A DNA stretch of 63,885 nucleotides, counting the filler, from Candidatus Nanoarchaeia archaeon (GTDB taxonomy: Archaea > Nanobdellota > Nanobdellia > Woesearchaeales > DATDTY01): assembly GCA_035290625.1 (NCBI GenBank). It is 5 parts of 4 records of this genome, joined end to end, with 100 filler letters (N's around TTAATTAATTAA, not from the genome) between each part and the next. Parts side by side here need not be neighbours in the genome. Positions count along the whole stretch, not along the records: positions 1 to 20,766 come from DATDTY010000045.1; positions 20,867 to 52,283 come from DATDTY010000046.1; positions 52,384 to 56,390 come from DATDTY010000051.1; 2 more parts are not named here. The stretch is one strand, 5' to 3'. The position numbers were made by a program, and so were the translations under genes. Shown in pieces: positions 1-53,405 of this stretch. Each line of letters begins with the position of its first letter. The stretch's first letter is position 1. The notes beneath the pieces are model-generated. The model was not told the origin of the DNA and did no database searches. It was given only the letters and a program-made list of their open reading frames with translations.

Positions 1-140
1 TCGCTCGGCAGCGCCAGGTTCGCCATGCGCAAGTCAGGCAGAATAGCGACATTCTCCGAGGGAGGCGACCCTCTTGTCGCTGTGCCGCCGCTCCGTTATA
101 ATGGCTTACAAGAGGGCGCTGCATGACTTTTCAATGCCAC
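1..140. repeat. Structured ~161-bp repeat family, copy A (5' end cut by window edge)
   Basis: Collinear with 26164-26326. Stems GCAGCGCC/GGCGCTGC, GCCAT/ATGGC and AGCGACA/TGTCGCT; ends in TIR CTTTTCAATGCCAC. Confidence 0.92.
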
Positions 141-148
141 CAAACATA

Positions 149-163
149 CGAAAGTTTATAAAA
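149..163 (+). promoter_or_regulatory. Archaeal BRE/TATA promoter (CGAAAG-TTTATAAA)
   Basis: About 22 nt upstream of ATG 186. Similar motifs precede other genes (e.g. near 26335, 54521, 57139, 60616). Confidence 0.65.
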
Positions 164-185
164 GAGCGCAGATGTCTCATTTTTG

Positions 186-389
186 ATGAGATTTGAAGGG
201 AATCCCCAAGCAGAGAAGCTGGGGTTCGTAGCAGGCTTCCTTGCAAGTTATGCAGCTATGACGGGGATACTCTACGCAGTCCTATCCTTAGGGAACAAGC
301 TGCCGGATGCCTGGTCTTTTTTTTTTGTCATGCTTATCACAGCCACTGTCATCGGAGCAGGCAAAGGAATCCAATATATACTTAGGTAA
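186..389 (+). CDS. Small two-TM membrane protein
   Basis: Two hydrophobic helices; TATA box upstream; first gene of the carbamoyltransferase cluster. Confidence 0.65.
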   Translation: MRFEGNPQAEKLGFVAGFLASYAAMTGILYAVLSLGNKLPDAWSFFFVMLITATVIGAGKGIQYILR

Positions 390-462
390 ATACAGCCAGC
401 GAAATGGAGCGAAACGCAACAACAGCGCAAAGCAATGAATAAAGAAAACAGCGAAGCGAATC

Positions 463-708
463 ATGGCTCTAAATCGGTTTTTCCATGGGTTTAGGAGGGG
501 TTTAAAGGAGACGGGCTCCGCAATTATCTCTATTATCAATTCGGTATTACTTACTGTAGTTTATCTTCTTGGTGTTGGTTTGCCATCCCTTGCCGCAAGA
601 GTATTCAAAAAGGAATTTCTTGAAACAAAAACAGGCCAAACATCAACCTACTGGTCAGAACTCAACCTCAGAAAGAACCCCATAGAAAAATACGCAAGGC
701 AGTTTTAA
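463..708 (+). CDS. SxtJ-like small membrane protein
   Basis: One TM segment, then STYW and a C-terminal YARQF, resembling SxtJ-type proteins that accompany carbamoyltransferases; 1 nt before next ATG. Confidence 0.6.
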   Translation: MALNRFFHGFRRGLKETGSAIISIINSVLLTVVYLLGVGLPSLAARVFKKEFLETKTGQTSTYWSELNLRKNPIEKYARQF

Positions 709-709
709 A

Positions 710-2470
710 ATGTACATTCTCGGAATAAGCTGTTACTATCACGACGCATCAGCAGCGCTCCTGAAAGACGGAGCTATTATAGCTGCAGCAGAAGAGGAGC
801 GGTTCACAAGGAAAAAGCACGACACTTCTTTCCCAATCAATGCAATCACGTACTGCCTGAAACAAGAAAACATATCAGTCAACGACATAAGCTACATCGG
901 ATTTTATGAAAAACCGTTCCTAAAATTTGAGCGAGTCCTCCACCAGCACTTACAGGGATTCCCATGGAGTTTTAAGACATTTCTTGCCTCAATGCCGTCT
1001 TGGATCAATGAAAAGCTTCGTGTACCAAAGACTGTCAGGAAAAAGCTTAAATACCACGGTCCCATACTGTTCATCGAGCACCATCTTGCGCACGCTGCAA
1101 GCTCATTCTTAGTAAGCCCATTCGCAAAAGCAGCGGTTCTTACAGTAGACGGAGTCGGCGAATGGACCACGACTGCATATGGCATTGCAGAAGGAAATGA
1201 TATTACCCTCCTTAAGGAGATTAAATTCCCCAGCTCCCTTGGCCTGCTCTACTCAACCATCACAGCCTATCTTGGGTTCAGCGTCAATAATTCTGAATAC
1301 AAGGTCATGGGCCTTTCTCCCTATGGAACGATGGACAGGAAAAATAATCCCTACTATGGAAAGCTCAGAAAAGTCATTGATATCAAGGGAGACGGAAGCT
1401 TTAGGTTTGACATGAGCTACTTCACATACCATTATGCAGACAGGATGCCTTCCAGGAAGCTTTGCGCTCTTCTTGATGGCCAGATCCGGAAGAAAGAGTC
1501 TGAAATAACACAGCGCCATAAGGATATAGCGGCGGCTCTTCAAATGCTCTTGGAAGACATTATGACAAAAATGCTCAATCACCTCCACCAGGAAACAAAA
1601 TGCGACAGCCTTGTTCTTGGAGGAGGAGTTGCATTAAACAGCGTCTACAATGGAAAAATTCTTCGAAATACCCCTTTCAAGCATATCTGGATACAGCCAA
1701 ACGCATCAGATGGAGGGACAAGCATCGGTGCTGCTTCGTATATTTATCATACCCTGCTCGGGAATGAGAGAACGTATGTTCTCAAAGACGCATACCTCGG
1801 TCCAGGGTTTTCAGCATCCGATATTAAGGAATTCCTTCAGGAAAACAAAATCAGGTATCATGAGCTCAAGGACAGAAACGAAATCATAGAAAAGACCGCG
1901 AAGCTCATTCATGACAATCGTGTCGTTGGTTGGTTTCAGGGAAGGATGGAATGGGGACCAAGGGCCCTAGGCGCAAGATCCATCCTCTCAAACGCCCTTA
2001 ACCCCAAGATGCAGGAAATACTCAATCTCAAGGTTAAGCACAGGGAGAGATTCAGACCCTTTGCCCCGGTTGTCTGCGAAGATGACGCTTTGAAATATTT
2101 TGAATGTGACTCGCCGATACCAGAGCCAACAGATTTCATGCTGATGGTGTATCCTGTCAAAAAGCAATGGGCACCGAAAATCCCTGCAGTGACGCACGTC
2201 GATGGCTCGGGCCGCCTGCAGACCATCCGACGCCATCAAAACCCACTTTATTATGATCTCATCAAGGTGTTTGGCAGGATCGCGGGGATTCCCATCCTCA
2301 TCAATACCTCATTCAACATCCGGGGAGAGCCAGTTGTCTGCACACCCTATGACGCGTACAAGTGCATGATGGGAACAGGAATCGATGATCTCATCATCGG
2401 TAATTTTCTGATCAGGAGAAGCGAGAACCCGAAAGACATATGGAACAGCGAGGAGTACGCAAATGATTAG
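710..2470 (+). CDS. O-carbamoyltransferase (NodU/CmcH family)
   Basis: YYHDASA, EEERFTRKKH, HHLAHAAS, DGVGE, EYKVMGL, GGVALN, EWGPRALGARS, FRPFAP, HVDGSGR, NTSFN. Confidence 0.96.
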   Translation: MYILGISCYYHDASAALLKDGAIIAAAEEERFTRKKHDTSFPINAITYCLKQENISVNDISYIGFYEKPFLKFERVLHQHLQGFPWSFKTFLASMPSWINEKLRVPKTVRKKLKYHGPILFIEHHLAHAASSFLVSPFAKAAVLTVDGVGEWTTTAYGIAEGNDITLLKEIKFPSSLGLLYSTITAYLGFSVNNSEYKVMGLSPYGTMDRKNNPYYGKLRKVIDIKGDGSFRFDMSYFTYHYADRMPSRKLCALLDGQIRKKESEITQRHKDIAAALQMLLEDIMTKMLNHLHQETKCDSLVLGGGVALNSVYNGKILRNTPFKHIWIQPNASDGGTSIGAASYIYHTLLGNERTYVLKDAYLGPGFSASDIKEFLQENKIRYHELKDRNEIIEKTAKLIHDNRVVGWFQGRMEWGPRALGARSILSNALNPKMQEILNLKVKHRERFRPFAPVVCEDDALKYFECDSPIPEPTDFMLMVYPVKKQWAPKIPAVTHVDGSGRLQTIRRHQNPLYYDLIKVFGRIAGIPILINTSFNIRGEPVVCTPYDAYKCMMGTGIDDLIIGNFLIRRSENPKDIWNSEEYAND

Positions 2471-3575: not shown

Positions 3576-3742
3576 ACATTCAGTCATATAGCTCATAGGA
3601 GGGCAATTTTATATCAACACCTTCAGAATTCTAATTAATTCCAATTGATAGATGCCTCTGCGTGCATAATACGACTGAATAATCCAAGCCTTGACTGCAA
3701 GAACGAAGTGAACGGCTCAAATTGATGATTAATCTATTCCCA

Positions 3743-4882: not shown

Positions 4883-5059
4883 TTTTGTACCTTCGTTAAG
4901 CTTTAATAGACTTCCGAAATATTTTGGTATTCCATCTCCACTTCAAATTTTTCTTATTGAAAATTCCCCCCCCCATTTTAGGAGACACCAGCCTGAAAAA
5001 CGCGATTAGCGGACTGGAATACTCCCTGCCAGAACTCAAGACCAGCTCAGGACACCTTA

Positions 5060-6604: not shown

Positions 6605-6649
6605 TCAGTAGAGTAAAAGAAAACTCTATTTAAATCTTGCTATAATGCG

Positions 6650-6810
6650 GTCGCATTGAAAAGTCATGCAATGCCCTTTGTGAGCCTTCTATTCAAAGTA
6701 CAGAACAGCGACAAAGGGGTTGCTCCATACGGGAAATGTCGCTTCCCATGAGAGTATGCGCAAGGCGAAGTCGGCATTGCCGAACGAAGTGAGCAACTTT
6801 TCAATGCCAC
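6650..6810. repeat. Structured ~161-bp repeat family, copy B (opposite orientation to A, C, D)
   Basis: TIRs GTCGCATTGAAAAGT / ACTTTTCAATGCCAC; stems GCAATGCC/GGCATTGC, GCCTT/AAGGC, AGCGACA/TGTCGCT. Confidence 0.92.
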
Positions 6811-6864
6811 CCATTTGATACTAAGTTTTATAAAATAAGCCATGATTCCCCTCTCTTATTTAAG

Positions 6865-8292: not shown

Positions 8293-8293
8293 A

Positions 8294-9016: not shown

Positions 9017-9095
9017 TTTGAATAACGACACTTTAGATCCTTATATAAATTATTTGAATTCGGCAAGTATTATATATCCCCGTATTAAAAATGCT

Positions 9096-9605: not shown

Positions 9606-9659
9606 GGGGGGTTTCTACTGCTTTCTTATACAAAATGAGGGCTCCTCGCCCTAAATCTA

Positions 9660-9793
9660 ACACGGGCTATTTTCCTCGCTTGATAGGTTGTCCAGCCATC
9701 ATTCTTGCGCCTTATGGTCTCCATAAGCTTCCCTCTGGTGAGTTTCATGCTCCAATGTAACTCACCGTAGGGAAATAGTTTCGGGATAATACA
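9660..9793 (-). pseudogene. Probable left-end remnant of an IS481-like element (5' fragment of transposase)
   Basis: Minus strand starts TGTATTATCCCGAAAC (TGT terminus), then short ORF MKLTRGKLMETIRRKNDGWTTYQARKIA resembling a transposase HTH N-terminus; family assignment from recall only. Confidence 0.45.
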
Positions 9794-9843
9794 GTTGCCC
9801 TTTTTACCCAAACATTTAAAAGACATACACTGATTCTCCGACT

Positions 9844-11985: not shown

Positions 11986-12451
11986 CTGGGTAGGCCATAT
12001 CTTATTTGCATTGATCCTCTGCGAGATTGGCAGGGTCAAAAAAGGAGAGATGAGAGCTCTTGTTGTCCTTGGCGCATTATTGCCTGATATCGTGAGCAAG
12101 GCACATCTTCTGGGATTCTTTCTTCCGTTTAATGCAGAGCAGATGTTCCTGTTTTTCCATCCGACAGCTCATTCGTTATTAGGGGCGTTTTTGCTTGCCT
12201 TGATTGCCTCAGGATTGTTTGTTTATGACCAGAAGAAGGCTTTTTTGCTGTTGAGCATTGGCTCTGTTTCCCATATCCTGGCTGACATGACGAATCGGTT
12301 TTTTGTCTATGGGCCGATTCATGTGTGGCTTCCGTTCTCGTTCCAGAGCACGTTTGCAGGACTGTTCTGGAGCGATGAGTATTTATATCAAATCCTTCTG
12401 TTTCTGGTGTTGTATATGGCTCTACTTGCTGTCAAGGGATGGAAACGATGA
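11978..12451 (+). CDS. Membrane metal-dependent hydrolase (YdjM-like)
   Basis: H..F, GALLPD, HS, SHILAD motifs. Confidence 0.75.
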   Translation: MPDWVGHILFALILCEIGRVKKGEMRALVVLGALLPDIVSKAHLLGFFLPFNAEQMFLFFHPTAHSLLGAFLLALIASGLFVYDQKKAFLLLSIGSVSHILADMTNRFFVYGPIHVWLPFSFQSTFAGLFWSDEYLYQILLFLVLYMALLAVKGWKR

Positions 12452-13392
12452 AATGGGTTCATGCCCTTATGCGAATCGGGTTTGGAGTTGCTATCCTTGC
12501 TGCTTTGTTCTATACTGTCGGGATTAAGGAGGTTATTAACCATCTTGGCCAGGCTAATGTATTGGTTGTTGTGCTTGCTGTCACCTTTTTCGGCCTCGGG
12601 ATGCTCATCGGAGCAGGGAATTTCATGATGCTGGCGTGGCCGGTGAATAATAAGATTAGGTATCTTGAGTTTGTCAGAATCTTTTCCCTAAGCTGGGCGA
12701 TAAGCCTGTTCCTGCCTTCAAGGATTGGAGAGCTTTCCCTTATTTACTATCTGAAGAAGGAAGGGATAGAGATGGGCAAGGCTGCGGCATTATTTTTGAT
12801 TGATAAGATGATTACGACTGCGATCATTGTTACGCTTGCCGTGTTTGGATTCTTCTTGTTCTTTCCTGAGACGAATGCTGCATTCACAGTCTTGCTTATT
12901 CTGTTAGGAGCCGGGATTTTAGGGCTGTTGGTTTTTCTTGAGCCTGTAAGAATGTTCACCCGAAGACACGTCTTGAGGTCTTATGCAGGCAGGTTTGACA
13001 AATTTCTAGATACGTTTATTTACTATGTGAAGAATCACAAGGCAAGGCTGTCTTTGAATTTCTGCATTTCAGTCGTCAAGTGGTTTGTTCTGACGTGGTT
13101 CATGTGGTTTTTGTTTAAGAGCATTGGCGTTTCTCTGGATCTTTTTACTTTGATGGAAATCCAGGCGATGCTTGTGATCGTTGCTTTGGTTCCTATCACG
13201 TTAAATGGACTCGGGGTCAGGGAATCTGCAGGGGTCTTTCTGTATTCTCAAGTAGGGGTGAATGCTGAGGCTGCCGCTGCTTTCTTTCTTCTTTTGCTGA
13301 TATTGAACTATATCATTGCAAGCCTGATATTTCTGTTCTTTTGGGGAAGGGTTAAGGAGCATGTGAAGGCTGCTGGAGAGGAGTCGCAATGA
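12448..13392 (+). CDS. Lysylphosphatidylglycerol synthase TM-domain / UPF0104 flippase-like protein
   Basis: LPSRIGE and PITLNGLGVRE motifs, multi-TM; its TGA stop lies within repeat copy C. Confidence 0.85.
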   Translation: MKWVHALMRIGFGVAILAALFYTVGIKEVINHLGQANVLVVVLAVTFFGLGMLIGAGNFMMLAWPVNNKIRYLEFVRIFSLSWAISLFLPSRIGELSLIYYLKKEGIEMGKAAALFLIDKMITTAIIVTLAVFGFFLFFPETNAAFTVLLILLGAGILGLLVFLEPVRMFTRRHVLRSYAGRFDKFLDTFIYYVKNHKARLSLNFCISVVKWFVLTWFMWFLFKSIGVSLDLFTLMEIQAMLVIVALVPITLNGLGVRESAGVFLYSQVGVNAEAAAAFFLLLLILNYIIASLIFLFFWGRVKEHVKAAGEESQ

Positions 13393-13543
13393 AAAGTTGC
13401 TCACTTCGTTCGGCAACGCCTAGTTCGCCATGTACTGTTTCGGCTGTTGAACGACATTCCCCGTATGGGGCGTCCCCCTTGTCGTTGCTCTGCTCTCTGT
13501 TTAAATGGCTCACGGATGGCGTTGCATCGCTTTTCATTGCGAC
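13383..13543. repeat. Structured ~161-bp repeat family, copy C
   Basis: TIRs GTCGCAATGAAAAG / CTTTTCATTGCGAC; stems GCAACGCC/GGCGTTGC, GCCAT/ATGGC, AACGACA/TGTCGTT. Confidence 0.92.
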
Positions 13544-13559
13544 TTGAGGAGGAAAAGCT

Positions 13560-20866: not shown

Positions 20867-23800
20867 CCTCCCCCCCCTCCGCCCCCGCCCCCTCCATCAT
20901 TTGGATCGGCGCATTGCCCTGCTCCGCCTGCTCCGCCGCTTCCTCCACTTGACCCTCCTGTTCCGCTACTTCCATCACTTCCGCATGTGGGAGGATTGGA
21001 ACTTCCAGCCCCTCCATTGCCCCCATTTGGTGATCCTGCTGCGCCTGCCTGACCGAAGCATGGAGACCCTCCTCCGCACTTTCCTCCAGTCCCTCCAGTT
21101 CCGCTCGTTGCTACTGCTCCGTTGAATGTCGTATTTCCTCCAGTCCCTCCAGTTCCTCCATCTCCTGAACCCACCCCTCCGCCTCCTCCGCCTCCTCCGC
21201 CTCCTGCAACCAGCGTTATATTTACTGAAACAACTCCTGCAGGCTTTGTCCATGTTCCGTTTGCGGTGAAATTTACCTGTTGCTCTGATGTTGAAGAGAC
21301 TGTTTCTAATGAAATCCTGCCTGTGCTGAAATTAACTGATACATTTGTTGTATTCGCAATTCTTCGGGGGTCTGTGAAGGAATCAGAGAGAGACTGTTTG
21401 GAATTTTCAAGCTTTGATGCATAGAACCATGCCTCAATCGTGAGAGCAGTTACGATGTTCAAGCCTGTGTGGTTCGTAACATTGATATAATCCACATCTC
21501 CGTCAAATTGGGCCGCCCCCCCTCCTATCCTATTTCCGCCGCTCCTGTTGATAAATGTGTTTCCATTCCTTGTTCCATTATAGCTTAGCCCGTAATCATA
21601 GTAATCATTGTCAAAAGGATACCATGCAACTAACCCATTGTCAGATATAGTTCCATTAATTATTCCGGAAGAGACATTCAGTACCCCATTCCTGTACCAG
21701 GTGAAGATGCTGGTGACGTTTACGGTCCCATCTCCTGCTGTGCTTCGGTTATAGCATGTTAGGTTCTGTGTCGTTATGTTTGAAGTCTCTGTTGAGTTGA
21801 GGATAGGAGCACTTTGGGTGGGCGGTGCATTCAATGCATACGCAATAATATCATTGAACTCAAACTTGATGGCATGATGAGCTTCAACCAACCATTCATT
21901 GATAAGAACTCCTTCAGTGTAGTTCCAATCCTGTTTTGTTATTTTTATTATTTTGTTTGTTATTGGGTCTAATCCTTTTTCATGATCAATGGATGCGTAC
22001 TCATTTGATTCATTTGTTGAATTCGTATCTGATTCATTTGATATATTATTTACATTTCCAATCCTTGCCTTTAAATCAATAAACCGAAGATGATCTCGGG
22101 TTGCATTATCATCTATTGGCCATTCTCCCCAGGTTGTGTTATAGGTTTCATTGGTTATCAATGAGATTGTTAAGTTTCCAATTCCTGTTGTGTTGAAATA
22201 CACTGTCCAGTTCTCTCCTAATTTCGCAACAGAGTGAAGTGTAAGGATTTCAAGGCTTAATTCATAGGTTTGATTGCTTAATGAAGGAACTATCCATTCA
22301 ATGTAATCAATCAAGCTATTGTTATTCGTATCATAGTTTGTTGTTTCTATTTTTATTTTTGAATTATTAACAAGCCAATATAATGAGAATTGGTTATTGG
22401 AAACCTCTCTCGGCAGTTCTGTAAACGCAAGGATATCCTCATAATGGATGCCTGAGGAAATGGTGATTGTTTTTCTTGTATCTGAGATATTGAATTCCTC
22501 TGCTGCCGGGCCTTCAGTATAGTACTCCACCTCAGCCTCGGTTATGTTCTCTTCGATAATGAGCTCTGTAGTGTTTTCTTGCGCCAGTATCTCAGCAACA
22601 ACATTCCCTGTAATCGCATTCTCAGGTTTCTGGCTGTTAATGGCTTTCTCTTTTCTTTCATCCTCAAAGTCCTCAAGCGTCTTTACTGTTGCGTTTTCCC
22701 TGACTTTCAACTTCTCTTTGGCTATTTCTTTGGCTTCCTGATCCTCAATCTTTCTTACTGTGATATTTGTTGCCTCTGGATGAATCTCTATATTGAAGCT
22801 TGCAGTCTCTGTGCTCAAATTGACAATTTTCGTCCATTTTACAGGCTTGCCAACAACGACGCTTGGTTTTCTTGTTGTGATTGAAGTATTCTCAGGCAAA
22901 ACATTAATCTCAAACACATTTGAGATGAAGGAAGCAATGCCGTCTGAAACTGCAAGGTAAGCAAATTGCTGTGTTGGCGAATCGGCTGAAAGGGAGAGGA
23001 GATTGCCATTAATGCTGAAAGTTATATTCTCAATCGAAGGCAATGCATAGATGAGAGTATCATTATCAGGGTCAGAACAATACTGCGAAAGGTCAAGTTC
23101 AGTTTTTGTTCCTGCCAAAAAGCTGATGTTGGGGATGATGCTGCAGGATGGTCTTGCATTTTCAGTTGAGGTATACGCTATGGAATTGAGCATAACCTTG
23201 CCTTCCTCCAGTTCTACTTCAATCTTATACTCAGACTGGTTAAGGCTGATAGCGCATGTTTCCCTGCATTGGTCTGTAAACTCGATAATCGCATCAACGA
23301 AGGTGATGTTTACGGCTACGAGATTGCTTATAGCGCTCTGAATCGTGAGGTTTTCGATATCAAACTTATGATAAAGCACAGAGGCTGCTATTGTGTTTCT
23401 TTCTGTTGCTCCGTTTCTTCCATACTGGGCGTAATAGGTATCGTTCCATTGCTCTGATGCTGAATCAAGGCCCATCGATGCGCAGCATTCCTCCGATCCC
23501 TGGCAAGTAAATGTGGAAATCTCGGTATCGTATGAATAGGCTTCCCACCTGGTACATAGCGTTTCGGAGCTTGTGTTCCAGGAGAACGCTGCATCAATGT
23601 CCACGGTTACGGCGTCTTTCTTTGTTGCAATGCTTTTTGCAGGCTTCAGGATGATGGAGATATTGCTTGCGGTTTCATTTCCTGCCTGGATTTCAGTATG
23701 CTCTGTTGTATCATTTATTATACTCTCTTCTGCCTTGCCTATACTGTCACTTTTTCCAGTCTCGTTTGTTGTTGGTGCGCTTTCATTTGCTCCCTTCTTT

Positions 23801-24369
23801 GTAAGATCATCAACCGCATTGGTAAGATTGCTGCTTGTCTCGTTTGCGCCAATTTCAACATCTGAAACATTTGAGCTTAGATTGCTCTCATTGCTCACAG
23901 CGAATCCTGTGATAAGGATTCCTTCAGTTGTATTTGTGGGGTATTCAAAGAGCAGCAGTCTTGTGTCATTGGCTATAAAGTAGATCTTCATTGGCTTTGT
24001 TCCTATGTACGTGCCGGAGATCTTTACCCAGCCTATATCCCGCCTTACAGGTTTCCAGTCTATGATCTGAGATGAGGTGAATGACTGGTTGAGCGTCTCA
24101 GTATACACCTTTGTTTTTCCCTGAGGAACAAATCCTGTAGGGCCATTAATGATATTGGACAGGCCAAACACGATTATTATGAGGAGCACACCTATAATCC
24201 CTATTACTTTTGCCGCGCTTGCCTGCATTTCCCTCTGAACCAGGCTTTTTGCAATGTCCTCATCATAGCCATATGTGAGGATGGCTTTGTAAACAGAGCT
24301 GTATGAGTAGCCAGATCTCCGCTGCTTGCGGATATACTGCCTTAACTGCCTTTTACGCTCTTTTCTCAT
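20867..24369 (-). CDS. Large membrane-anchored surface protein (Ig/cadherin-like, LamG-like, Gly-rich), 3'-truncated by contig end
   Basis: TM near N-terminus, many N-x-S/T sequons, DPDNDTL, GLVAWYPFD...FDGDVDY...LTIEAW, FTANGTWTKPAGV..AGGGGG. Confidence 0.85.
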
Positions 24370-24826
24370 GTTTCCTTGCTTTATTGACTGTATTCCAGAT
24401 GTTTCTCTGATCCCTGTGCAGGAGTTTAGCAATCTGATGATAGGGAAGGTGGCTGAGCTCAAGTGAAATCGATTCGAGAGGCGAAAGATTTCTTTTTGCC
24501 AAGGCTTTCAAAGGAATTCCAGCTTCTCCTTTAATCCTGAATCTGGAAGGATGTTTTCGCTTTGCAGCTGTAAAGGAAGCCCATATCGTGCGTGGGTTGC
24601 GGTTCAGCTTTCTTGCAATGGATGAGAAACTCTCGGCTTTCTGCTCGTGAAGGTATTTTACTGCAGCTTCAAGAATGCCGAGCTTTGAGGTGAAGATATC
24701 AACTGGAAGCATGTCTTCTTCAAAGAATGAGAGCAACTCTTCCCTTGAGATTGAGCCAGAGGCTTTCAGGCTCTTTACCAATGAACTGAGGGCTCTCTTC
24801 AGCTCTGCCTGAGATTTCTTTTGCAC
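24353..24826 (-). CDS. Tandem-HTH DNA-binding protein
   Basis: Internal duplication ILEAAVKYL..SIARKLNRNPRTIW / PLESISLEL..QIAKLLHRDQRNIW; overlaps start of the surface-protein gene. Confidence 0.7.
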   Translation of the reverse strand: MQKKSQAELKRALSSLVKSLKASGSISREELLSFFEEDMLPVDIFTSKLGILEAAVKYLHEQKAESFSSIARKLNRNPRTIWASFTAAKRKHPSRFRIKGEAGIPLKALAKRNLSPLESISLELSHLPYHQIAKLLHRDQRNIWNTVNKARKHEKRA

Positions 24827-26125: not shown

Positions 26126-26163
26126 GGACTGAAAGGAAAGATGCGGATTTAATAAGGTTGTGG

Positions 26164-26326
26164 GTCGCATTGAAAAGTTGCTCGCTTCGCTCGGCAGCGC
26201 CATGTTCGCCATGCGCAAGTCAGGCAGAACAGCGACATTCCCCGAAGGGGGCAACCCCCCTTGTCGCTCTGCTGTCTTATTTTAAGATGGCTCACGAGAG
26301 GGCGCTGCATGACTTTTCAATGCGAC
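26164..26326. repeat. Structured repeat family, copy D (MITE-like, flanked by 10-bp direct repeat)
   Basis: Perfect 15-bp TIR GTCGCATTGAAAAGT/ACTTTTCAATGCGAC; AAGGTTGTGG at 26154-26163 and 26327-26336. Confidence 0.93.
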
Positions 26327-26372
26327 AAGGTTGTGGAAAGGTTTATAATTCACGGAGCAACCATCACCTTGT

Positions 26373-37497: not shown

Positions 37498-37788
37498 ATG
37501 GCTGAAAAACGATACCACCTCATCATTTCAGGAAGAGTGCAGGGAGTGCTTTTTAGGTATAACTCAAAGCTGAAGGCTGACCGCTTAGGCATCTATGGCT
37601 GGGTGCAGAACATGAAGGACGGCTCTGTTGAAATCGTGTGCCAGGGAGAGGCTGGTAAGCTCCGTGAGTTTATTGATTGGTGCGGGAAAGGCCCGTTTTT
37701 AGCTAAAGTAAGGGGCATCAAGATAACAGAGGAAAGGGTTAAGAAGGAGTTTCAATCCTTCTCCATCCGATATGCGATAGTAGTATAA
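37498..37788 (+). CDS. acyP: Acylphosphatase
   Basis: SGRVQGVLFR, GWVQNMKDGSVE, GP..AKV; last 15 nt overlap tRNA-Gly. Confidence 0.92.
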   Translation: MAEKRYHLIISGRVQGVLFRYNSKLKADRLGIYGWVQNMKDGSVEIVCQGEAGKLREFIDWCGKGPFLAKVRGIKITEERVKKEFQSFSIRYAIVV

Positions 37789-37875
37789 AGGCCAGTATAC
37801 AACGTTGCCAATAGCAGAACTCTGTATTTGCTACGTAAAGACGTTGGGATCCGGGTTCGATTCCCGGCTATCGCA
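37774..37875 (+). tRNA. tRNA-Gly(GCC) with canonical intron 37811-37840
   Basis: Acceptor GCGATAG/CTATCGC, anticodon stem CAACG/CGTTG, T-arm CCGGG-TTCGATT-CCCGG; BHB TTGC/GTAA. Confidence 0.93.
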
Positions 37876-41818: not shown

Positions 41819-41819
41819 C

Positions 41820-44067: not shown

Positions 44068-44068
44068 T

Positions 44069-45103: not shown

Positions 45104-45114
45104 ACGCTTTCACC

Positions 45115-48100
45115 TCATGGAGCTCCATTCTGCGTCAATGTTCCTTTCATAAAAACATACCCCGACTCATTTACAACAACCTGCCATTCTCCATCTTTTC
45201 TTATTCTGAAATCAGTATCATCCAAAGAGGATGATATGGTTGACTGATTCTGGAACAAAGTTCCATCAATATACATATTGCCATCATTCTCGATAATCAG
45301 AACATCTTCTCCGTTGTTTCTTATGATGAAGGCAAAGTCAGCGTTTCTTGTGTGGGCGGAGTTCTGCTCCAAGATACCTTTAATCACGGCGTTTCCTGAG
45401 TCGCCGAGCCAGGCCATGTTGCTGCCTGAAGTATTCTTGATGGTGAATTTATTGAAGTCTGGAGGCAATATTGTGAAGTTATACATCGCAACAATCTCTG
45501 TCTGATTATAAGCCAGGAGATTATCATTTTCATCTGTTGCAGCAACCCATACCCTGTATGTGCCATTGCCGTTGTTACTTGTATTCCATGCATTTGGATT
45601 CCAAATAGCATCGAGCTTTAATGTTTGATTTATATTAACTGTTCTTGGGGATGTATCATTCTGTATTATGGCTTCGTCTACGAAGCCACTGCCATTATAG
45701 TACTGGATCTTCATCAATAAATATATGGAAACATTACTTTCTCCATTATTGATTATTTTTGACTCAGTGGATTTACAGATACCATCGCAATACGCGTTAT
45801 CAGTGCAATCTGATTGAGAAGAACAGGATGTTGGGCAGGTAGTGCCATCACATGTTACATAATAATCGCATGTTTTTACAGTTGGGCCATATTTACATCC
45901 TCCACCAGTATTAATGCCTGCATCACACACATCATCTCTTAAGTATGAGGGCGTGCTACCGCTACCTGTAACGCAAGTTTGGTCTGGGCAGTCTGCCGCA
46001 TCAGTCCAAGTGCCTCCTCCATCACATCTTCGCGGATCATCACCGGTATCTGTATCATACGCATAGTTATAGCATTGATAGTATCCATTACTCTCTATTT
46101 GAGCATCCCAATTACACTCATTTGAAGCTGTGCAAACGTAACCAGTGCTATCTCTTCCATCCAAAGAACATTGGTTGCTTGCGCAGGCACCATTTCTTTC
46201 TGACATGTTATTTGTATACGTGACCCCGCAGTCTATTCCATTCGATAGGTCTGATTGGCAATAGCCAGTTGAGTTGCAGAATTGTCCTGCTACGCAATCT
46301 GAGTTTTGATCGCAATCGACATAGGTTATTTGGAGATATGTGTTTGCATTATTTACAAGAATCTCTCCAGCAACAATATCATCCAAATCTTCCTTCCCTT
46401 TAAAATGATAATAACAATAACCATCACCGTAGCAGCCTTCTTTATGGTCAATATCGTTAGAGGACATCGTGTAGGTAGAAGTGCCAGACATCTTATTTGT
46501 TTGATAGATTAATCCTCTGCCAGGCTGGATATTCCAAGTTAGGTTACTTGGGTTATATGGACCGTCATAATAGTACACTTCAACATATCCGTCTGCTTGG
46601 GAATAATCCTGCATATCTACATAGAAGCTTAAGGTTATTCCCACTATAGCTTTATTGCTCCAATTTAGTGAGCCATTTCCAAATCGTATGGCGGCACTAT
46701 CTTCTTGTACACCAACCTCGTCATAGAAATCTGGGGAATTTACCTGATACGTAGTGCTAGGGTTGCTTTGACTTAGCTGATTGCCTTGTTTTTCTGATGT
46801 GTCATCATAGGTGACAGTTGTTGAATGTTCTCCAACAGTAAGGTTTTTCCCAAGGATTGTGTCATTAAATTTAAAATTTAATTGTTGCTTATTAGACAAT
46901 GAATTATAATTTACAGAAGTTTTTTTTGCACCATTTATTTTGACAGGAATATCTTTATTCATCTCATTCTCATCCTTGATTATTGGTTTAAATGTGATAG
47001 AAGTGTAATTAAAATCAACAATCTCCAAATCATACCTACTGTCATTCTCTAGATAAACCAGCTCAAATACGCCTTTATCCATTAAGCTTCGAGCTTTCTC
47101 GACCCTTTTCCACCCTCCACCCTCCTCAATATTTCGAGTAGAGCCATACATAGTCCTTGTTCTGCTTCCATCTTCATTGATTATTTCATCGAAGACCGCC
47201 CCATATTTCTGCCCTTCGTCTGTTGGGAGCAAATCAGATTTTTCTAGGAGTATCAGGATTGGAGGATGGTTCTCTTCGGCTGTGGAGTTTGCTGTTGTGT
47301 TTTGCTCTTCGGAAGATTGATTCGTGTTGTTTTCTTCTGGAGGGTCGGTTATGTTTACAAACTCATTGCTGGTGTAATCATCCTTTAATGTTTTTATGTT
47401 GATGTAGAGATTATATGCTGAAGCTATAGCTACAGAACTAGAGGCATTAGCATTGTATGTCTCGCCATAAGAAGATGAAGTAATGCTTACATTAAAGTTT
47501 TTTGCGCCTTCTTCTGTTGCGTTGACTGTCCATACTGCTGTTTTTGAGGAGCCGTCATTTATTGTTTCCAAATCCCGAGGATTAGCGCCCGAGATAAGTG
47601 TCAATCCAGAAGGAAGGTTTAAGGTTACACTAACTCCATGAGCATTTAAGTCTCCTGTTGGTGTTATTTGAGCGGAGATGTTGAAGAGTTGTCCTTCTTG
47701 TTTGCCTGACGGATTTGAGAGGGATGCGCTTAGGGCTGGAGGGTTTATTGTGAAATCTGTATCGGTCTCTGTAGCAACAGCAAACTCCTCATTGCCAGTC
47801 CAAACATCAGCGGAGTTTACTTTAAGAACAATATTATCATAATTAGTATCTGTTGCAACCTGTTCGACATTATCTATACCGGAGGTGGAAGAGTCAACTG
47901 TGTTTCCATCAGATTCATCATATAGATAAAGATCTATATCATGCAGAGATTCACCTTGGTGCTTAAACCAAACAAGAGTGGATGTATCCCCATTGTCTAC
48001 ATTAGTGAGTTTATAAAGTCTAACTCCATCATCGGTAAAACTCGATTCGTACCATGTGTTGTCTATATAAGTATGAGCCGATCCTAAATTAACTGAACCC

Positions 48101-49671
48101 CAACCATAATATTCGTCCCAACCAGTATCACCATAGTCCCTTGCAGTGTTTATCAATAATGCTTTGATTTCTAGAGTATTAGACAACACATCATCGAACC
48201 AAGCTGAGGCAGCCGAGACATGAGGTACAGCAAAACTAGTTCCACCCCCTACCTTCGCAATTGAAAACTCTCCCGACGCATTAGCACTCTTTATTGCAAC
48301 TCCTGGAGCCATAATGTCTGGTTTCTTTCTTCCATCACCTGTAGGCCCTCTTCCACTAGCACCCCCAGACGCAGAAATTGACCAGTTACCCCATACGTCA
48401 TCATCTCTATTAGTTGTATTTTTGTCATCCATTGCACCTACTGTTATTACATTATATCCATCACCTGGTTGGGTAAGATTCTTGCTACCTGTATTCCCTT
48501 TGTTCCCTGCTGCGACAACAATTGTAGCCCCACCTACATCTGCCTCAGTATCATAATCTGTAGTGATTAGTGATGTTCCATCTTTTTCTTCTTTATCTTT
48601 TCCTACACTTAAACTTATTACTTCTGCCTGATCTGGAGCATCCCATAATGACCAATTCATAGCTTGAATCATATTATTTTCATCAATCTCATCTCCATCT
48701 TCATCCAACTTAACATTAATCATACTGCTTATGTTGTACATAACTCCTCTGTAAGTGTCATTTGATGAGGCAATAATGCCTGCAATAAGGGTTCCGTGAT
48801 TTAAAACATCATTTGTTGCCTCTCCATCATAACTTTTGTTATACCATGTCCTCAATGTACTCCCATCAGACAAATATTTCAGATTGGGGTGACTTATGTT
48901 AATGCCTGAATCAATTATGGAGATTGTTGCAAGGGGTTCGGGTCCGTTTCCTCCTGAGTAATCATTCTGTAGGCTGCTGGCAACTATCGCTCCTGGGCTA
49001 ATATCCAAAGCAAATCCGCTTTCTTTGACATTAAGCCCAATACCTTCTATCCTGCTATCGTTCAAGAATCCTATGACTTCTCCCACTTTGATTCTGGCTA
49101 TTATTATATTGCTAATCAGAAAGTTATTAATGATATCCCCTTCCTTTGATTGAATCTCTTCTAATAACGGTTCTTGAATCTTGGCGTTACTGATTGAGAG
49201 ATTATGTTCAATATCATTTCTTAATTGCGTTTTTAATTGGTTTTTTGCTCTGGCTAAATCTTTAATCTTATCTCTATCCTCCTGTGATATACGCTGATAC
49301 AAGTCCAGGCTATGTTCCTCCTCCTGAAGAGGAGTAAGATTCCTTGGTTTATATTTCTTAAGAACATCTTTAATCTTAGCACTATAGTTTTTGATATCTG
49401 GCTCATATTCCTCTTTTATCTTACTGATAACCTGTCTGGGAGGATTGCCCTCCAGTCTGATTATTATTTCTAATTCTTCATTTGCGCCAATCTCGGCTCT
49501 TTGGTATTGGGTTATATTATCCTGTAGACGTGAACTTATCCTGGGGGTTCCAGTCTCTGTGATCACTGGCTTGTTTAAAGCGGAGACGGTTATCACTAGA
49601 GAAAGGAACATAATAATTGAGATATAAACCAGTATTCTTATCTTGGGGTATACATTATTTCTTTCAATCAA
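45115..49671 (-). CDS. Giant multidomain secreted S8 (subtilisin-like) serine protease
   Basis: IIDSG, NHGT, AAGN, GTSFAVPHV catalytic motifs; propeptide, Ig-like region, Cys-rich repeats, triplicated C-terminal beta repeat; GAGGTGA before TTG. Confidence 0.92.
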   Translation of the reverse strand: MIERNNVYPKIRILVYISIIMFLSLVITVSALNKPVITETGTPRISSRLQDNITQYQRAEIGANEELEIIIRLEGNPPRQVISKIKEEYEPDIKNYSAKIKDVLKKYKPRNLTPLQEEEHSLDLYQRISQEDRDKIKDLARAKNQLKTQLRNDIEHNLSISNAKIQEPLLEEIQSKEGDIINNFLISNIIIARIKVGEVIGFLNDSRIEGIGLNVKESGFALDISPGAIVASSLQNDYSGGNGPEPLATISIIDSGINISHPNLKYLSDGSTLRTWYNKSYDGEATNDVLNHGTLIAGIIASSNDTYRGVMYNISSMINVKLDEDGDEIDENNMIQAMNWSLWDAPDQAEVISLSVGKDKEEKDGTSLITTDYDTEADVGGATIVVAAGNKGNTGSKNLTQPGDGYNVITVGAMDDKNTTNRDDDVWGNWSISASGGASGRGPTGDGRKKPDIMAPGVAIKSANASGEFSIAKVGGGTSFAVPHVSAASAWFDDVLSNTLEIKALLINTARDYGDTGWDEYYGWGSVNLGSAHTYIDNTWYESSFTDDGVRLYKLTNVDNGDTSTLVWFKHQGESLHDIDLYLYDESDGNTVDSSTSGIDNVEQVATDTNYDNIVLKVNSADVWTGNEEFAVATETDTDFTINPPALSASLSNPSGKQEGQLFNISAQITPTGDLNAHGVSVTLNLPSGLTLISGANPRDLETINDGSSKTAVWTVNATEEGAKNFNVSITSSSYGETYNANASSSVAIASAYNLYINIKTLKDDYTSNEFVNITDPPEENNTNQSSEEQNTTANSTAEENHPPILILLEKSDLLPTDEGQKYGAVFDEIINEDGSRTRTMYGSTRNIEEGGGWKRVEKARSLMDKGVFELVYLENDSRYDLEIVDFNYTSITFKPIIKDENEMNKDIPVKINGAKKTSVNYNSLSNKQQLNFKFNDTILGKNLTVGEHSTTVTYDDTSEKQGNQLSQSNPSTTYQVNSPDFYDEVGVQEDSAAIRFGNGSLNWSNKAIVGITLSFYVDMQDYSQADGYVEVYYYDGPYNPSNLTWNIQPGRGLIYQTNKMSGTSTYTMSSNDIDHKEGCYGDGYCYYHFKGKEDLDDIVAGEILVNNANTYLQITYVDCDQNSDCVAGQFCNSTGYCQSDLSNGIDCGVTYTNNMSERNGACASNQCSLDGRDSTGYVCTASNECNWDAQIESNGYYQCYNYAYDTDTGDDPRRCDGGGTWTDAADCPDQTCVTGSGSTPSYLRDDVCDAGINTGGGCKYGPTVKTCDYYVTCDGTTCPTSCSSQSDCTDNAYCDGICKSTESKIINNGESNVSIYLLMKIQYYNGSGFVDEAIIQNDTSPRTVNINQTLKLDAIWNPNAWNTSNNGNGTYRVWVAATDENDNLLAYNQTEIVAMYNFTILPPDFNKFTIKNTSGSNMAWLGDSGNAVIKGILEQNSAHTRNADFAFIIRNNGEDVLIIENDGNMYIDGTLFQNQSTISSSLDDTDFRIRKDGEWQVVVNESGYVFMKGTLTQNGAP

Positions 49672-49697
49672 CCTTCACCTCTATCTATTATGACCTA

Positions 49698-50750: not shown

Positions 50751-50801
50751 CCCCTTCCCCTCGCTAAAAACCTTCAGTCTTTATAAGCCTTTATCCTTTC
50801 G

Positions 50802-52055
50802 TTATTTTCCAAACCTTGCTTTTTTTCCAAGAGAACTCTCTATCTCCAGCAGCCGGTTGTATTTTGAGGTCCTGTCTGACCTGGCGGGAGCTCCGAACTT
50901 GACCTGATCTGCTCCAATGCCGACTGCAAGATCTGCGATAAATGAATCTTCTGTCTCTCCGCTCCTGTGGGAGGCGATTACCTTCCAGCCGGCTTTTTTT
51001 GCAAGCTGAGAAGCCTTGATTGCTTCAGTCACAGTTCCTATCTGGTTTGGCTTTAAGAGAAGGGCGTTTGCAGCTTTCTTTTTGATTGCTGTCCTGATCC
51101 TTTCAGGATTGGTCACAAGCAGGTCATCACCTACGATCTGGACTTGCTTTCCGATTGCAGCCTGCAAGGAAGACCACCCTTCCCAATCATCTTCTGCAAG
51201 GCCATCTTCTAATGAGATTACCGGGTATTTCTTTATGAGATCCTGATACATCTGAGCCAGGGATTCTGAGCTGTATGTTTTGCTGCCAATCCGGTAGCAA
51301 TCGCTCTTTTTATCATAAAACTCTGAAGCAGCAGCATCCAGGGCAATCTTTATTTTTCCAGTGTATCCGGCTTCATCTATACATCTCAAAAGGAATTGGA
51401 GCCTTTTCTCTACACTATCCATTGGAGCGATGAATCCTCCTTCTGCTGTGACTGAAGCTGCTGCAAATCCGTATTTTCTGGCTATTCTTTCCTTAACAAT
51501 ATGGTAAGCCTCTGTTCCTGCTCTTAATGCTTCGGAGAACGACTTAAACTTTAGTGGAACAATCATATATTCCTGGATGTCGTGCTCTGCACCAACGTGG
51601 GCCCCTCCGTCCAGGATATTCATTTGAGGAACCGGCAGCCTTATCCTCCTGTTTCTTGCAAGATTGCTGATGTGCTGAAAGAGCTCTCGGTTCCCTGCTC
51701 CAAGGCGGCAGGCAGCCATGCTGACAGCCAAGGTGGCATTTGCGCCTATCCTGGATTTGTTTGCCGATGGATCGAGGCTTCGTAAGGTATTGTCTATAAG
51801 CTTCTGGTTGGCAGTGTTTTTTCCTCTGAGAGCTCTTGCTATTCTTGTATTGATGATTGCTACTGCTTTCAGCACTCCTTTTCCGTTGAAGCGCCTTCCG
51901 CCATCTCTTAACTCATGAGCTTCGTGGATTCCTGTAGAAGCGCCGGATGGAACTGAGGCTTTGGCTGTTTTTGATGCCTTTATTGTTGCCTGGACTGTTG
52001 GGTTCCCCCTACTATCCAGAATCTCTATGGCTTTCACTTCTTGTATGGCCGGCAT
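50802..52055 (-). CDS. eno: Enolase
   Basis: ILDSRGNPTV, PSGASTG, DAAASEF, VGDDL, LLKPNQIG, SHRSGETED, KYNRLL. Confidence 0.97.
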   Translation of the reverse strand: MPAIQEVKAIEILDSRGNPTVQATIKASKTAKASVPSGASTGIHEAHELRDGGRRFNGKGVLKAVAIINTRIARALRGKNTANQKLIDNTLRSLDPSANKSRIGANATLAVSMAACRLGAGNRELFQHISNLARNRRIRLPVPQMNILDGGAHVGAEHDIQEYMIVPLKFKSFSEALRAGTEAYHIVKERIARKYGFAAASVTAEGGFIAPMDSVEKRLQFLLRCIDEAGYTGKIKIALDAAASEFYDKKSDCYRIGSKTYSSESLAQMYQDLIKKYPVISLEDGLAEDDWEGWSSLQAAIGKQVQIVGDDLLVTNPERIRTAIKKKAANALLLKPNQIGTVTEAIKASQLAKKAGWKVIASHRSGETEDSFIADLAVGIGADQVKFGAPARSDRTSKYNRLLEIESSLGKKARFGK

Positions 52056-52283
52056 TACAGTAATCTAAGAACCGAGGTATAAAAATCTTTTCTAAATCAG
52101 CCCCTTCTCCTTCCATCCAGGCTCTTTCACGATTCTCCTGTATCTTGCGTATTTGTCCTGGGGGCTGTACTTTGGAGGGCTTTTTGAGAGGGCTTTCTGG
52201 CCGCAAGTGCATACTCCTCTCATCGTATATTTATTGCAGTTGCTACACCATAGAATCCGCTTCATGCTTCTGCTCGCTTGAAT

Positions 52284-52383
52284 NNNNNNNNNNNNNNNNN
52301 NNNNNNNNNNNNNNNNNNNNNNNNNNNTTAATTAATTAANNNNNNNNNNNNNNNNNNNNNNNNNNNNNNNNNNNNNNNNNNNN
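52284..52383. other. Artificial contig linker
   Basis: N44-TTAATTAATTAA-N44. Confidence 0.99.
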
Positions 52384-52385
52384 AG

Positions 52386-52940
52386 GCTAAAACCCTTATC
52401 GAGTCGAAGATATCCTGCAGCGAGCTCACAGATGACCAGCTTGAGGAGATCGGAGATTACGCCATGGAGCAGATGCACCCTGGCGACGCGCATGAGCTCA
52501 TGGATCAAATGATGGGAGGTGAGGTGTCTGAGCAGCTGAGACAGGCGCATATCGCAATGGCAGGGAGATGGTATTGCGGTGATACCTCTGGCACTCGATA
52601 TGGGATGATGGGGGCATTTGATGGGGCAAGCTACGGAGGAATGATGGATGGATTTAATGGCATGATGGGAGGAACGATGAACATGATGGGAGGTGGAATG
52701 ATGATGGGAGGCTATCCTTATGGATATGCATACAGTTGGAGTGGAATGATTGGCGGATTTCTGTTGATGGTGTTGTTCTGGGGCCTTGTGATATGGTTCA
52801 TATTCTGGCTCATAAAATCAGGCTCAAAGCAGGAGTCAAGGCAGGAATCAGGGTCTGCAATGGATATCCTCAAGAAAAGGTACGCCAAAGGCGAGATCAG
52901 CAAGAAGCAGTTTGATGAAATGAAGAAGGAGTTAAAATGA
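52386..52940 (+). CDS. Met/Gly-rich SHOCT-domain membrane protein (5'-partial)
   Basis: GMMG repeats, TM, ILKKRYAKGEISKKQF; frame open to contig edge. Confidence 0.85.
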   Translation, partial: AKTLIESKISCSELTDDQLEEIGDYAMEQMHPGDAHELMDQMMGGEVSEQLRQAHIAMAGRWYCGDTSGTRYGMMGAFDGASYGGMMDGFNGMMGGTMNMMGGGMMMGGYPYGYAYSWSGMIGGFLLMVLFWGLVIWFIFWLIKSGSKQESRQESGSAMDILKKRYAKGEISKKQFDEMKKELK

Positions 52941-53194
52941 GGGAGCAGAAAAAGCGGCTGAATGAGGCTGCGCTTGGCTTCAGCATTGCCGTTGTTTCAG
53001 CAGCATGCATGCTGCTCCTCGGGATCTTGGCTCCGATGGGGATGTATATGGGAGCATCCAGGATGATGGCACAGTGGCATATGTTCTATTCCCTGAGCCT
53101 GACAGGCATGATTGCGGGGATTATTGAAGGCGCAATAATCGGCTTTGTTCTTGGCTACGCAATTGCCTACCTCTACAACAGGTTTAACAACTAA
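52937..53194 (+). CDS. Small two-TM membrane protein
   Basis: ATGA overlap; hydrophobic; ends AYLYNRF. Confidence 0.7.
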   Translation: MREQKKRLNEAALGFSIAVVSAACMLLLGILAPMGMYMGASRMMAQWHMFYSLSLTGMIAGIIEGAIIGFVLGYAIAYLYNRFNN

Positions 53195-53242
53195 ATCTGT
53201 TTATTCCTATTTTTTCTTATTTTTGCATTCTTAATTGCCTTA

Positions 53243-53405
53243 GGCGGCATTGGGAAGATATGCAGCGGCCTTTGTGAGGTCATGATAAGAAGATAAGCGC
53301 ATCGACAAGGGAGTTGCCCCCTACGGGGAATGTCGATATAAAGAGAGGAAAGCCCGAACCGAACCTGCCGCTGCCGAGCAACACGTGCGTCTTTTCAACC
53401 CCTCC
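53243..53405. repeat. Structured repeat family, copy E (most diverged, same orientation as B)
   Basis: TTGGGAAGA/TCTTTTCAA (with G-T pairs), GCAGCGGC/GCCGCTGC, GGT/ACC, ATCGACA/TGTCGAT, CCCC-TAC-GGGG. Confidence 0.85.

Follow-up and report, generated by a model that had tools for sequence, protein, structure and literature searches.

A promoter-proximal MITE family with a covarying interior scaffold in an archaeal genome

The five dispersed repeats in the window (the whole stretch of DNA analysed, 63,885 nt) belong to a family of about 140-143 loci in this genome (model search, 0 decoy matches), which is assigned with hardly any doubt to MITEs by its target duplications, terminal repeats, an empty site and a probable IS5-like partner, and the interior fold of which is very likely under selection. 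The explanation favoured here, which as a whole appears fairly probable, is a non-autonomous MITE lineage with IS5-family DDE transposases borrowed in trans, a target set by the host and an interior of folded DNA. A preliminary description of this DNA had predicted many copies genome-wide, as is now found, and a selected RNA or ssDNA fold beyond an ordinary MITE; conservation of the interior does exceed that of the ends across many host families, but the element is nevertheless a MITE.

A search of the window with a covariance model recovered the five copies as its only strong matches (E 4e-23 to 7e-21), on the three contigs and at the places described before, besides one weak opposite-strand echo of copy D. 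Copies A (1..141, plus strand), B (6649..6811, minus strand) and C (13382..13544, plus strand) are located on contig C45, copy D (26163..26327, plus strand) on C46 and copy E (53243..53405, minus strand) on C51; the earlier boundaries were correct for E, while the true ends of A-D lie one base further out at each end (the left end of A is truncated by the contig start). Copy A is followed by a TATA-like box pointing away from it (155..161, plus strand; 14 nt past its right end) and by an ATG 45 nt past the same end. Copy B, with a terminal repeat of 14/15 and mixed end types, has TATA-like boxes 15 nt out on its left (6628..6634, minus strand) and on its right (6826..6835, plus strand), and the ATG of a radical-SAM gene is 45 nt from its left-side end. 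Copy C (terminal repeat 15/15) is sited at a gene junction with no clear promoter and provides the upstream ORF 12439-13392 with its stop codon, hence the description of all copies as intergenic does not fully extend to C. The young, polymorphic copy D lies 15 nt from a TATA-like box (26342..26348, plus strand) and 46 nt from the ATG of a glycosyltransferase gene, and the old copy E, with a terminal repeat of 10/15 and intact inner stems, lies 15 nt from a TATA-like box (53420..53427, plus strand) and 45 nt from an ATG. Target duplications had been overlooked before; they are present in D (8/8 matching) and, as a decayed 8-bp duplication (6/8), in C, and are absent from B and E. The latter absence and the lack of a clear promoter at C count against the favoured explanation. 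A check for copies containing an ORF gave none, those overlapping the window copies being chance ORFs only.

All elements of the architecture are given here for the plus strand of copy D. The left target-site duplication AGGTTGTG (26155..26162) is repeated on the right (26328..26335), and the left terminal inverted repeat P1 (26163..26177) is paired with 26313-26327 at 14 of 15 positions. Inside follow the stems P2 (26194..26201, partner 26301-26308) and P3 (26204..26212, partner 26287-26295), the latter carrying a conserved 2x2 mismatch, which reads TC/TC on the plus strand and GA/GA on the opposite strand. The variable loop L1 (26213..26230, 18 nt) faces loop L2 (26269-26286), and stem P4 (26231..26237, partner 26262-26268) supports the apex (26238..26261), i.e., a pyrimidine tract, a tetraloop, a purine tract, a linker and a mirror pyrimidine tract, forming a putative triple helix of 3-4 layers. 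The P1-P4 and apical variants quoted earlier are all present in the sequence; the compensatory changes claimed for every stem do not always apply to P1, with one unpaired position in B and the incomplete repeat of E. Folding of copy D is superior to that of shuffles (z = -6.2 for DNA and -5.5 for RNA; 0 of 200 shuffles equal it), and that of copy E is no better than shuffles (z = 0.16).

Mobility is evident from 53 of 121 loci in which the terminal repeat reaches 11.5/14 or more and the target duplication has at most 2 mismatches. Among these well-defined loci, with duplications tested at lengths of 8 and 9 bp only, 31 have 8 bp and 22 have 9 bp, and element length ranges from 156 to 262 nt. 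Watson-Crick pairs make up 646 of 700 terminal pairs among 50 distinct end pairs that had been picked for pairing. The empty site of copy D was found in two of four runs examined (X5 and X8, two other studies), the contigs of which skip 173 nt, corresponding to 165 + 8. Copies are mosaic with apex blocks shifting between them, and all 21 matches outside the catalogue that were obtained by searching modules as free elements represent further family copies. REP and IS200-IS605 hairpin elements are not known to have target duplications or terminal inverted repeats; such an identity is ruled out by the presence of both, as is retro-mobility by the terminal repeats and the fixed 8-9-bp duplications.

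Insertion 15-17 nt upstream of a TATA box, in either orientation, was observed for 41 of the 53 well-defined loci in this genome, and for 39 of 47 copies from 20 other genomes the promoter spacing is the same. Observed promoter spacings (30/40) compare with 6.9 expected, and even with only the space upstream of the promoter allowed, 10/12 were observed versus 1.8 expected. The right ends of IS5-like elements are found at the same spacing in 15/25 cases versus 1/25 in a control window, and once the duplication length of each is discounted, the gap to the TATA box does not differ between IS families. The use of one spot by unrelated IS families suggests that the target is set by the host, most likely next to promoter-bound TBP/TFB, where DNA would be bent or exposed. 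Such targeting could be mimicked by purifying selection in a compact genome or by an AT-rich target preference, which would agree with the short intergenic gaps and with the 12 of 53 well-defined copies missing a box at that spacing; this origin is nonetheless highly improbable in view of the excess within upstream space, the sharp and one-sided peak (a box on both sides in only 4/53) and the single gap held by differing IS families.

Of 150 other genomes belonging to the order, 40 contain matches of the model to the rod interior, from many host families, whereas BLAST with copy D alone retrieved only weak matches in 2 of 40 relatives, i.e., the covariance model was required. In a sequence-only alignment, 95.9 % of the stem cells are paired and two-sided changes occur at 17 of 24 pairs (0 of 500 shuffles as good), providing the significant covariation that had been anticipated for a larger alignment. 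The scaffold is a rod interrupted by the 2x2 mismatch and by a bubble of 18x18 nt, and capped by a small putative triple helix. Among 88 foreign copies, the mismatch is kept in 72 and replaced by AA/TT pairs in 8. The sequence of both loops is hypervariable while their length is fixed (89 and 84 distinct versions in 101 cores), and they pair less than with shuffled partners (6.04 vs 6.34 +/- 0.11). In agreement with the preliminary description, covariance-model searches assigned the family to no Rfam entry: matches in the window were two tRNAs only, with E of 2.1 and 2.7 at copy D, and 13 loci gave 0 matches at E up to 1. Viruses gave 0 matches for one exact core pattern, with none in annotated phages.

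The strand order at the apex (pyrimidine, purine, parallel pyrimidine) includes a 5-nt crossover. Of 53 distinct foreign apices, 32 carry C-G-C and 13 carry T-A-T at positions 3-13-22, and separate clades are concordant in 15/18 and 6/6 cases, with 0 opposite and 0 in off-register controls, counts which overstate independent origins because apex blocks move between copies. The three-way change from C-G·C to T-A·T is out of reach of fold-back copying and therefore suggests a triple helix of 3-4 layers. None of the four intrastrand triplex classes described in the accessible text of PMC4666352, where stems of 6 or more were searched, has this strand order; the 3-4 layers found here are shorter.

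An ordinary MITE with an unselected interior, the covariation of which arises incidentally when the arms of fold-back DNA are copied from one another or have their mismatches repaired, would account for the nearly exclusive Watson-Crick pairing, the symmetry of G-T and A-C in this genome (55 vs 56), the mosaic copies and the decay of old copies such as E. Antiparallel arm copying, however, cannot account for the change at apex positions 21 and 22, which is parallel and specific to the register, and such copying would close the loops, which instead keep their length and pair below the shuffled level; together with the persistent 2x2 mismatch, this renders such an origin of the interior quite improbable, and selection on the fold is preferred. 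With regard to the folded molecule, internal G·U pairs are rare (away from three helix-end pairs, G-T in 7 and A-C in 26 of 1,841 cells of foreign copies), of 53 apical loops, 51 conform to motifs of stable DNA tetraloops as against 25 to GNRA, and orientation in read-through contexts is unbiased (24 vs 26). On these three grounds, and by the balance of G-T and A-C in this genome, the evidence leans to folded DNA, so that DNA rather than RNA is considered the somewhat more probable form. The indications of strand are contradictory: the minus strand is favoured by tandem GA, by A-rich loops and by 12 A-C vs 2 G-T at the neighbouring pair, the plus strand by helix-end G-T pairs.

The same MITE could alternatively carry a structured RNA as cargo, such as a two-loop guide RNA or a mimic of an open promoter in the manner of 6S RNA, most likely transcribed from the minus strand relative to the orientation of copy D. 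The rod with its central bubble resembles 6S RNA, the minus strand bears the tandem GA and the A-rich loops as well as loops containing UNC, the loops vary strongly at constant length, and pyrimidine-motif triplexes are possible in RNA according to the accessible part of PMC4666352. Such a cargo is unlikely, since internal G-U is scarce on both strands, orientation is unbiased, 31 of 94 loci are flanked by divergent genes, and closed c(UNCG)g loops are limited to 19/53. Moreover, a K-turn signal is absent by loop position (loop logos lend no support to a K-turn or box C/D identity either), and five loop matches examined proved to be further copies or near-matches inside genes. Comparison of 173 loops as guides with the host genome gave 108 matches at up to 2 mismatches, with no target among the matches listed (the best 30 of 108), about half of which derive from one 13-nt loop.

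The mover of the MITE is likely an IS5-like transposase acting in trans, as judged from sequence. This genome encodes an IS5-like 284-aa ORF between GG-starting 16-bp repeats, the sole match of which is NF033579 (E 3.6e-28; 98.9 bits, below the NCBIfam cut-off of 140), with no Pfam match. By eye, its end is identical to that of copy D at 9/16 positions, i.e., merely similar, and the IS5-like ends in genomes G286 and G116 match MITE subfamily ends at 12/14. The IS5-like element of this genome lacks the MITE interior, and an autonomous element bearing the scaffold was found at 0 of 25 IS or RT loci (no model match below E 0.09). Formation of the MITE by internal deletion of an IS finds no support, the interior being matched at none of these 25 loci. 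An IS6 element in this genome shares the GG ends, 9-bp duplications and the promoter target, therefore the IS5-like mover is not pinned down; with its other ends and no scaffold, IS6 was rejected as source and is retained merely as a less likely mover. Transposases of IS1595, IS1 and Pfam DDE_Tnp_1_5 were not found in this genome, and the scaffold is absent near a 516-aa DDE ORF as well as near a reverse transcriptase that we label DGR-like by our own reading.

In the favoured explanation, the MITE lineage would borrow IS5-family DDE transposases in trans, and its interior would be selected as folded DNA, either as single strand or as cruciform arm. The weakest step is an action of the fold during transposition, and a role in this process is proposed only tentatively. 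By folding back, each strand could present the paired terminal repeat at its base, therefore the 160-bp element would not need to loop as a stiff duplex, and the bubble with the cap might be recognised by a protein. DDE transposition is not known to proceed from folded single strands. One may further speculate, though this appears rather unlikely, that IS5 transposases have in this family an old parasite, spread over the whole order, which moves as folded single DNA strands and recruits a protein by its interior, a natural functional DNA fold made of the bubble and the mini triple helix: fold-back pairing would then allow adopting the ends of different transposases, and pairing between strands of different copies would explain the mosaics. 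If true, such a parasite, together with a TBP/TFB-guided safe-harbour insertion common to several IS families, would amount to a new mode in the biology of MITEs and, as shown by covariation, to one of the rare natural tertiary structures of DNA. A MITE interior maintained across about 40 genomes from many host families, with base-triple covariation specific to the register, would be evidence from evolution that a tertiary fold of DNA or RNA is functional in an element class commonly regarded as two ends plus filler.

A literature search with thin coverage of subscription journals revealed no paper on a conserved MITE interior with base-triple covariation or on fixed insertion upstream of TATA/BRE by several IS families. 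The IS5-family elements from which the most comparable MITEs derive are those of the IS903 and ISH1 groups, with 9- and 8-bp duplications, respectively. IS5-family-derived MITEs share with the present family the GG-starting terminal repeats of about 14-16 bp, the 8-9-bp duplications, the non-coding and multi-copy nature and the co-occurrence with a related IS5-like transposase in one genome. Differences are the interior, which is not a deleted IS piece, the one scaffold common to many terminal-repeat types and host families, the fixed promoter-proximal target and the apical three-way covariation. The bcr1 repeat of the Bacillus cereus group (about 155 bp) is likewise mobile and non-coding with direct repeats and fold-keeping compensatory changes, hence such changes alone do not distinguish the present family; as far as described in the accessible text of PMC3184786, bcr1 has 5-bp repeats, is transcribed, adopts a cruciform-like fold at the RNA level and is confined to one species group, in contrast to the 8-9-bp duplications, the rod with bubble, the order-wide occurrence and the evidence leaning to DNA in the present case. 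The Sulfolobus MITEs SM1-SM4 are also archaeal and non-autonomous, but occur in tens of copies as compared to about 140 loci here, and the accessible text of the review (PMC10969869) states no conserved scaffold or TATA-spaced target ('TATA' 0 times). BoxC and TM repeats of E. coli are similarly dispersed, with G/C-rich mirror tracts capable of triplex formation; those in the accessible part of PMC4666352 belong to classes I-IV with stems of at least 6 nt, whereas the apex here has 3-4 layers in a different strand order and caps a long rod inside a transposon. Insertion by several unrelated transposase families at a fixed distance of a few bases upstream of TATA/BRE would imply that the basal transcription machinery marks a safe landing site, on which insertion tools that leave archaeal genes undisturbed could be based. 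The yeast LTR retrotransposon Ty3 is targeted by TFIIIB to Pol III start sites. Like Ty3, the MITE inserts at a set distance from what, judging from the TATA spacing, would be a TBP-bound promoter; unlike Ty3, several families of DDE DNA transposons are involved here, and insertion is upstream of the archaeal BRE.

The element family is a MITE, i.e., a miniature non-coding transposon, here with a folded interior rod. A covariance model returned exactly the five copies (A-E) of the preliminary description within the window; their locations hold, with the ends of A-D each lying one base further out than noted. Corrected ends place a perfect 8-bp duplication on the flanks of D (26163-26327) and a duplication matching at 6/8 positions on those of C; B and E have no flanking duplication. 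Copy B (6649-6811) also carries two unlike end types and is flanked on either side by a promoter at the canonical distance, possibly reflecting recombination between copies, adjacent deletion or an assembly chimera. A full IS5-like copy on contig C49 resembles B in these respects.

The anticipated abundance of copies genome-wide was confirmed. In the 1.37-Mb genome, an HMM from the five copies yielded 105 merged loci (E up to 1e-3), and an HMM of the core (interior scaffold) 127 matches (0 on a reversed-genome decoy), corresponding to 121 loci after merging. A right-half HMM contributed 22 further loci to a total of about 143, the true copy number being somewhat lower since some loci are one and the same copy, counted at two contig ends. 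Among the 121 loci, 53 combine terminal repeats scoring 11.5/14 or more with a duplication in which no more than 2 positions mismatch; of the two duplication lengths tried (8 and 9 bp), 8 bp applies to 31 (17 perfect) and 9 bp to 22 (7 perfect). Terminal repeats are very different between subfamilies, yet both ends of one copy match. Contigs of two metagenome sequencing runs from two studies (X5 and X8, not flagged as possible sources of the genome) lack 173 nt at D, i.e., the element plus one duplication; this empty-site joint is absent from two other runs examined. The nearest relatives of the genome's IS6 element suggest a Woesearchaeota-like DPANN archaeon as host, and metagenomes containing its sequence come from groundwater and soil. 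An automated census (PMC11602168) lists 105 MITEs per Mb for one Woesearchaea genome, and its supplementary files may include members of the present family.

The covariation proposed from five copies persists in a larger, sequence-only alignment of 39 copies (module-free, diverse picks from 101 parsed cores, aligned without the terminal stem): 95.9 % of cells are paired and 17 of 24 pairs show two-sided changes, while 0/500 shuffles reached this pairing and slid registers gave 31-45 %. Extension of the covariance search to other genomes, as suggested at the outset, detected the scaffold in 40/150 of the same order (including the unpublished G131, counted in this tally only); in a phylum sample 22/151 genomes matched, 22/22 of them within this order. 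A further alignment, made of 28 copies from other genomes (foreign copies) and fitted to the model, has 97 % of its cells paired. Considered singly, D greatly exceeds its shuffles in folding, whether treated as DNA or RNA and whichever strand is taken, and E shows no such advantage (z = 0.16). B folds well (z = -5.2), yet with a single-sequence structure differing from the consensus rod.

The two loops (16-21 and mostly 16-20 nt) are highly variable in sequence and pair with each other slightly less than with shuffled partners. A 2x2 TC/TC mismatch is present in 72/88 foreign copies, with AA/TT pairs instead in 8; the 100/101 cores of the own genome containing it are not independent, because the parse required the mismatch. 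Double-hairpin modules of about 41-57 nt occupy fixed insertion points in 27 and 7 of 101 cores (e.g., C53:2175-2380, C43:30004-30223 and C75:14953-15214); none was found outside the MITE family at the threshold used. Young copies display ends, loops and apices in shuffled combinations.

The apex comprises 23 nt, with pairs 3-13 and 4-12. Where T-A replaces C-G in these pairs, T also replaces C at positions 22 and 21, respectively, in the same register. For 3-13-22, 53 distinct foreign apices comprise 32 C-G-C, 13 T-A-T (11 genomes) and 8 others; for 4-12-21 in the own genome (n = 62), 53 are C-G-C and 4 T-A-T. Since the model kept 21 and 22 unpaired, this three-way change is not a fitting artefact, and since the register is parallel, fold-back copying cannot produce it. 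In a tree that leaves out the apex (171 rows, 9 dropped), concordant separate clades amount to 15/18 and 6/6 with none opposite, and off-register controls to 0. T-A-T apices occur with several different loops and linkers; the number of their origins is overstated, because blocks are exchanged between copies. Judged from sequence, the pattern fits base triples, with a pyrimidine motif on one strand and a purine motif on the other, or triples between both strands. They stay putative, since the apex belongs to none of the four intrastrand triplex classes described in PMC4666352 and has just 3-4 layers.

The fold appears somewhat more probable to act as DNA than as RNA. With three helix-end pairs excluded, G-T and A-C account for 7 and 26 of 1,841 cells; in the own genome they number 55 and 56, and orientation between co-directional gene pairs is balanced (24 vs 26). 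Moreover, stable DNA tetraloop motifs with C6-G11 closing fit 51/53 foreign and 50/65 own loops; as defined from a title in the references of PMC3201870, they span 44/256 possible loops, or 28/64 of those beginning with G. The same loop sets contain 25 (foreign) and 11 (own) GNRA loops and, read from the opposite strand, 19 and 14 c(UNCG)g. An RNA from the minus strand, the less favoured reading, would agree with the tandem GA, the A-rich loops and the excess of A-C (12) over G-T (2) beside the mismatch, whereas helix-end G-T pairs favour the plus strand instead.

A TATA-like box starts 13-18 nt outward of one end (peak 15-17) in 41/53 well-defined copies (right 25, left 20, both 4), and the start codon usually lies about 45 nt beyond the element end. 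Of the five copies in the window, four have this spacing, the exception being C at a ribosome-binding site. Based on crude longest-ORF gene calls, 30/40 rebuilt empty sites have the TATA spacing vs 6.9 expected for random positions within the same gap (13/53 excluded because genes had not been called or the gap was unusable). With the promoter set from the start codon alone and space upstream of the promoter only, it is 10/12 vs 1.8 expected (3/15 sites excluded, two with the spacing and one without). The spacing recurs in 39/47 well-defined copies of other genomes (from 88 loci), at 15/25 right ends of autonomous IS5-like elements vs 1/25 in a control window (30 loci examined), and by eye in 4/4 IS6 insertions. 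A multi-copy TGT-ended element, which we take to be IS481-like (contig ends C2, C6, C12, C19, C31, C32, C38, C49, C52, C65 and C69), has 14-16-bp duplications and, by eye, TATA about 21-22 nt out, its gap beyond the duplication equalling that of the other elements. Since the site is common to unrelated transposases, we infer a host-made target beside putatively bound TBP/TFB. IS6 relatives in Woesearchaeota and Methanosarcinales MAGs use the same promoter-edge site. At one foreign locus (G035:C54), the copy flanks extend as a long inverted repeat with a TATA-like box on both sides.

The MITE is likely mobilized by an IS5-type transposase. The genome harbours a complete IS5-like element (about C49:19040-20006, 284 aa), which recurs at contig ends and shows, by eye, an 8-bp duplication. 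Its C-terminal 39 residues retrieved relatives in 15/400 other genomes, and some relatives have termini that agree with those of MITE subfamilies at 12/14 positions (by eye). The assignment goes no further than likely, because the genome's own IS5-like end matches that of D at 9/16 (by eye), the protein scores below the family cut-off and the genome additionally carries an IS6 element flanked by 9-bp duplications. The protein had no match in Pfam, and the MITE interior was found in 0/25 IS loci (covariance model, best E 0.095). The IS6 element (C49:1-915) encodes an InsA-type zinc ribbon, with further ends at C15, C23, C41, C62 and C1 and a tiny ends-only derivative, a 32-bp palindrome, at C67:39801-39832. 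Contig C61 encodes a 516-aa DDE transposase, IS1634-like by reading, and one MITE copy, at the ends of C9 and C34, has a different IS inserted into its apex (approximately 11-bp duplication). A 360-aa reverse transcriptase of DGR-like appearance (C68:37802-38884) has a candidate template region upstream.

Folding MITEs as a class are already known, since folding is common among MITEs and the bcr1 fold is maintained through compensatory changes (PMC3184786). The fold as such hence does not set the family beyond an ordinary MITE, as originally supposed; what differs is one scaffold under many end types across an order, the base-triple covariation and insertion at a fixed promoter edge. A search of literature listings for promoter-edge insertion and for a triple-covarying MITE interior surfaced neither, and 'promoter' and 'TATA' have 0 occurrences in the main text of a 2026 archaeal IS survey (PMC13343696). 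The archaeal literature compared also included passages of PMC7986276 and PMC10969869.

The window furthermore contains a 1,198-aa ORF (20869-24462, minus strand) that lacks a Pfam match and has repeats of low complexity near 20870-21204, a protein of 1,518 aa that includes a subtilase domain (45115-49671, minus strand), and a tRNA match of 102 nt (37774-37875), suggesting an intron-containing tRNA.
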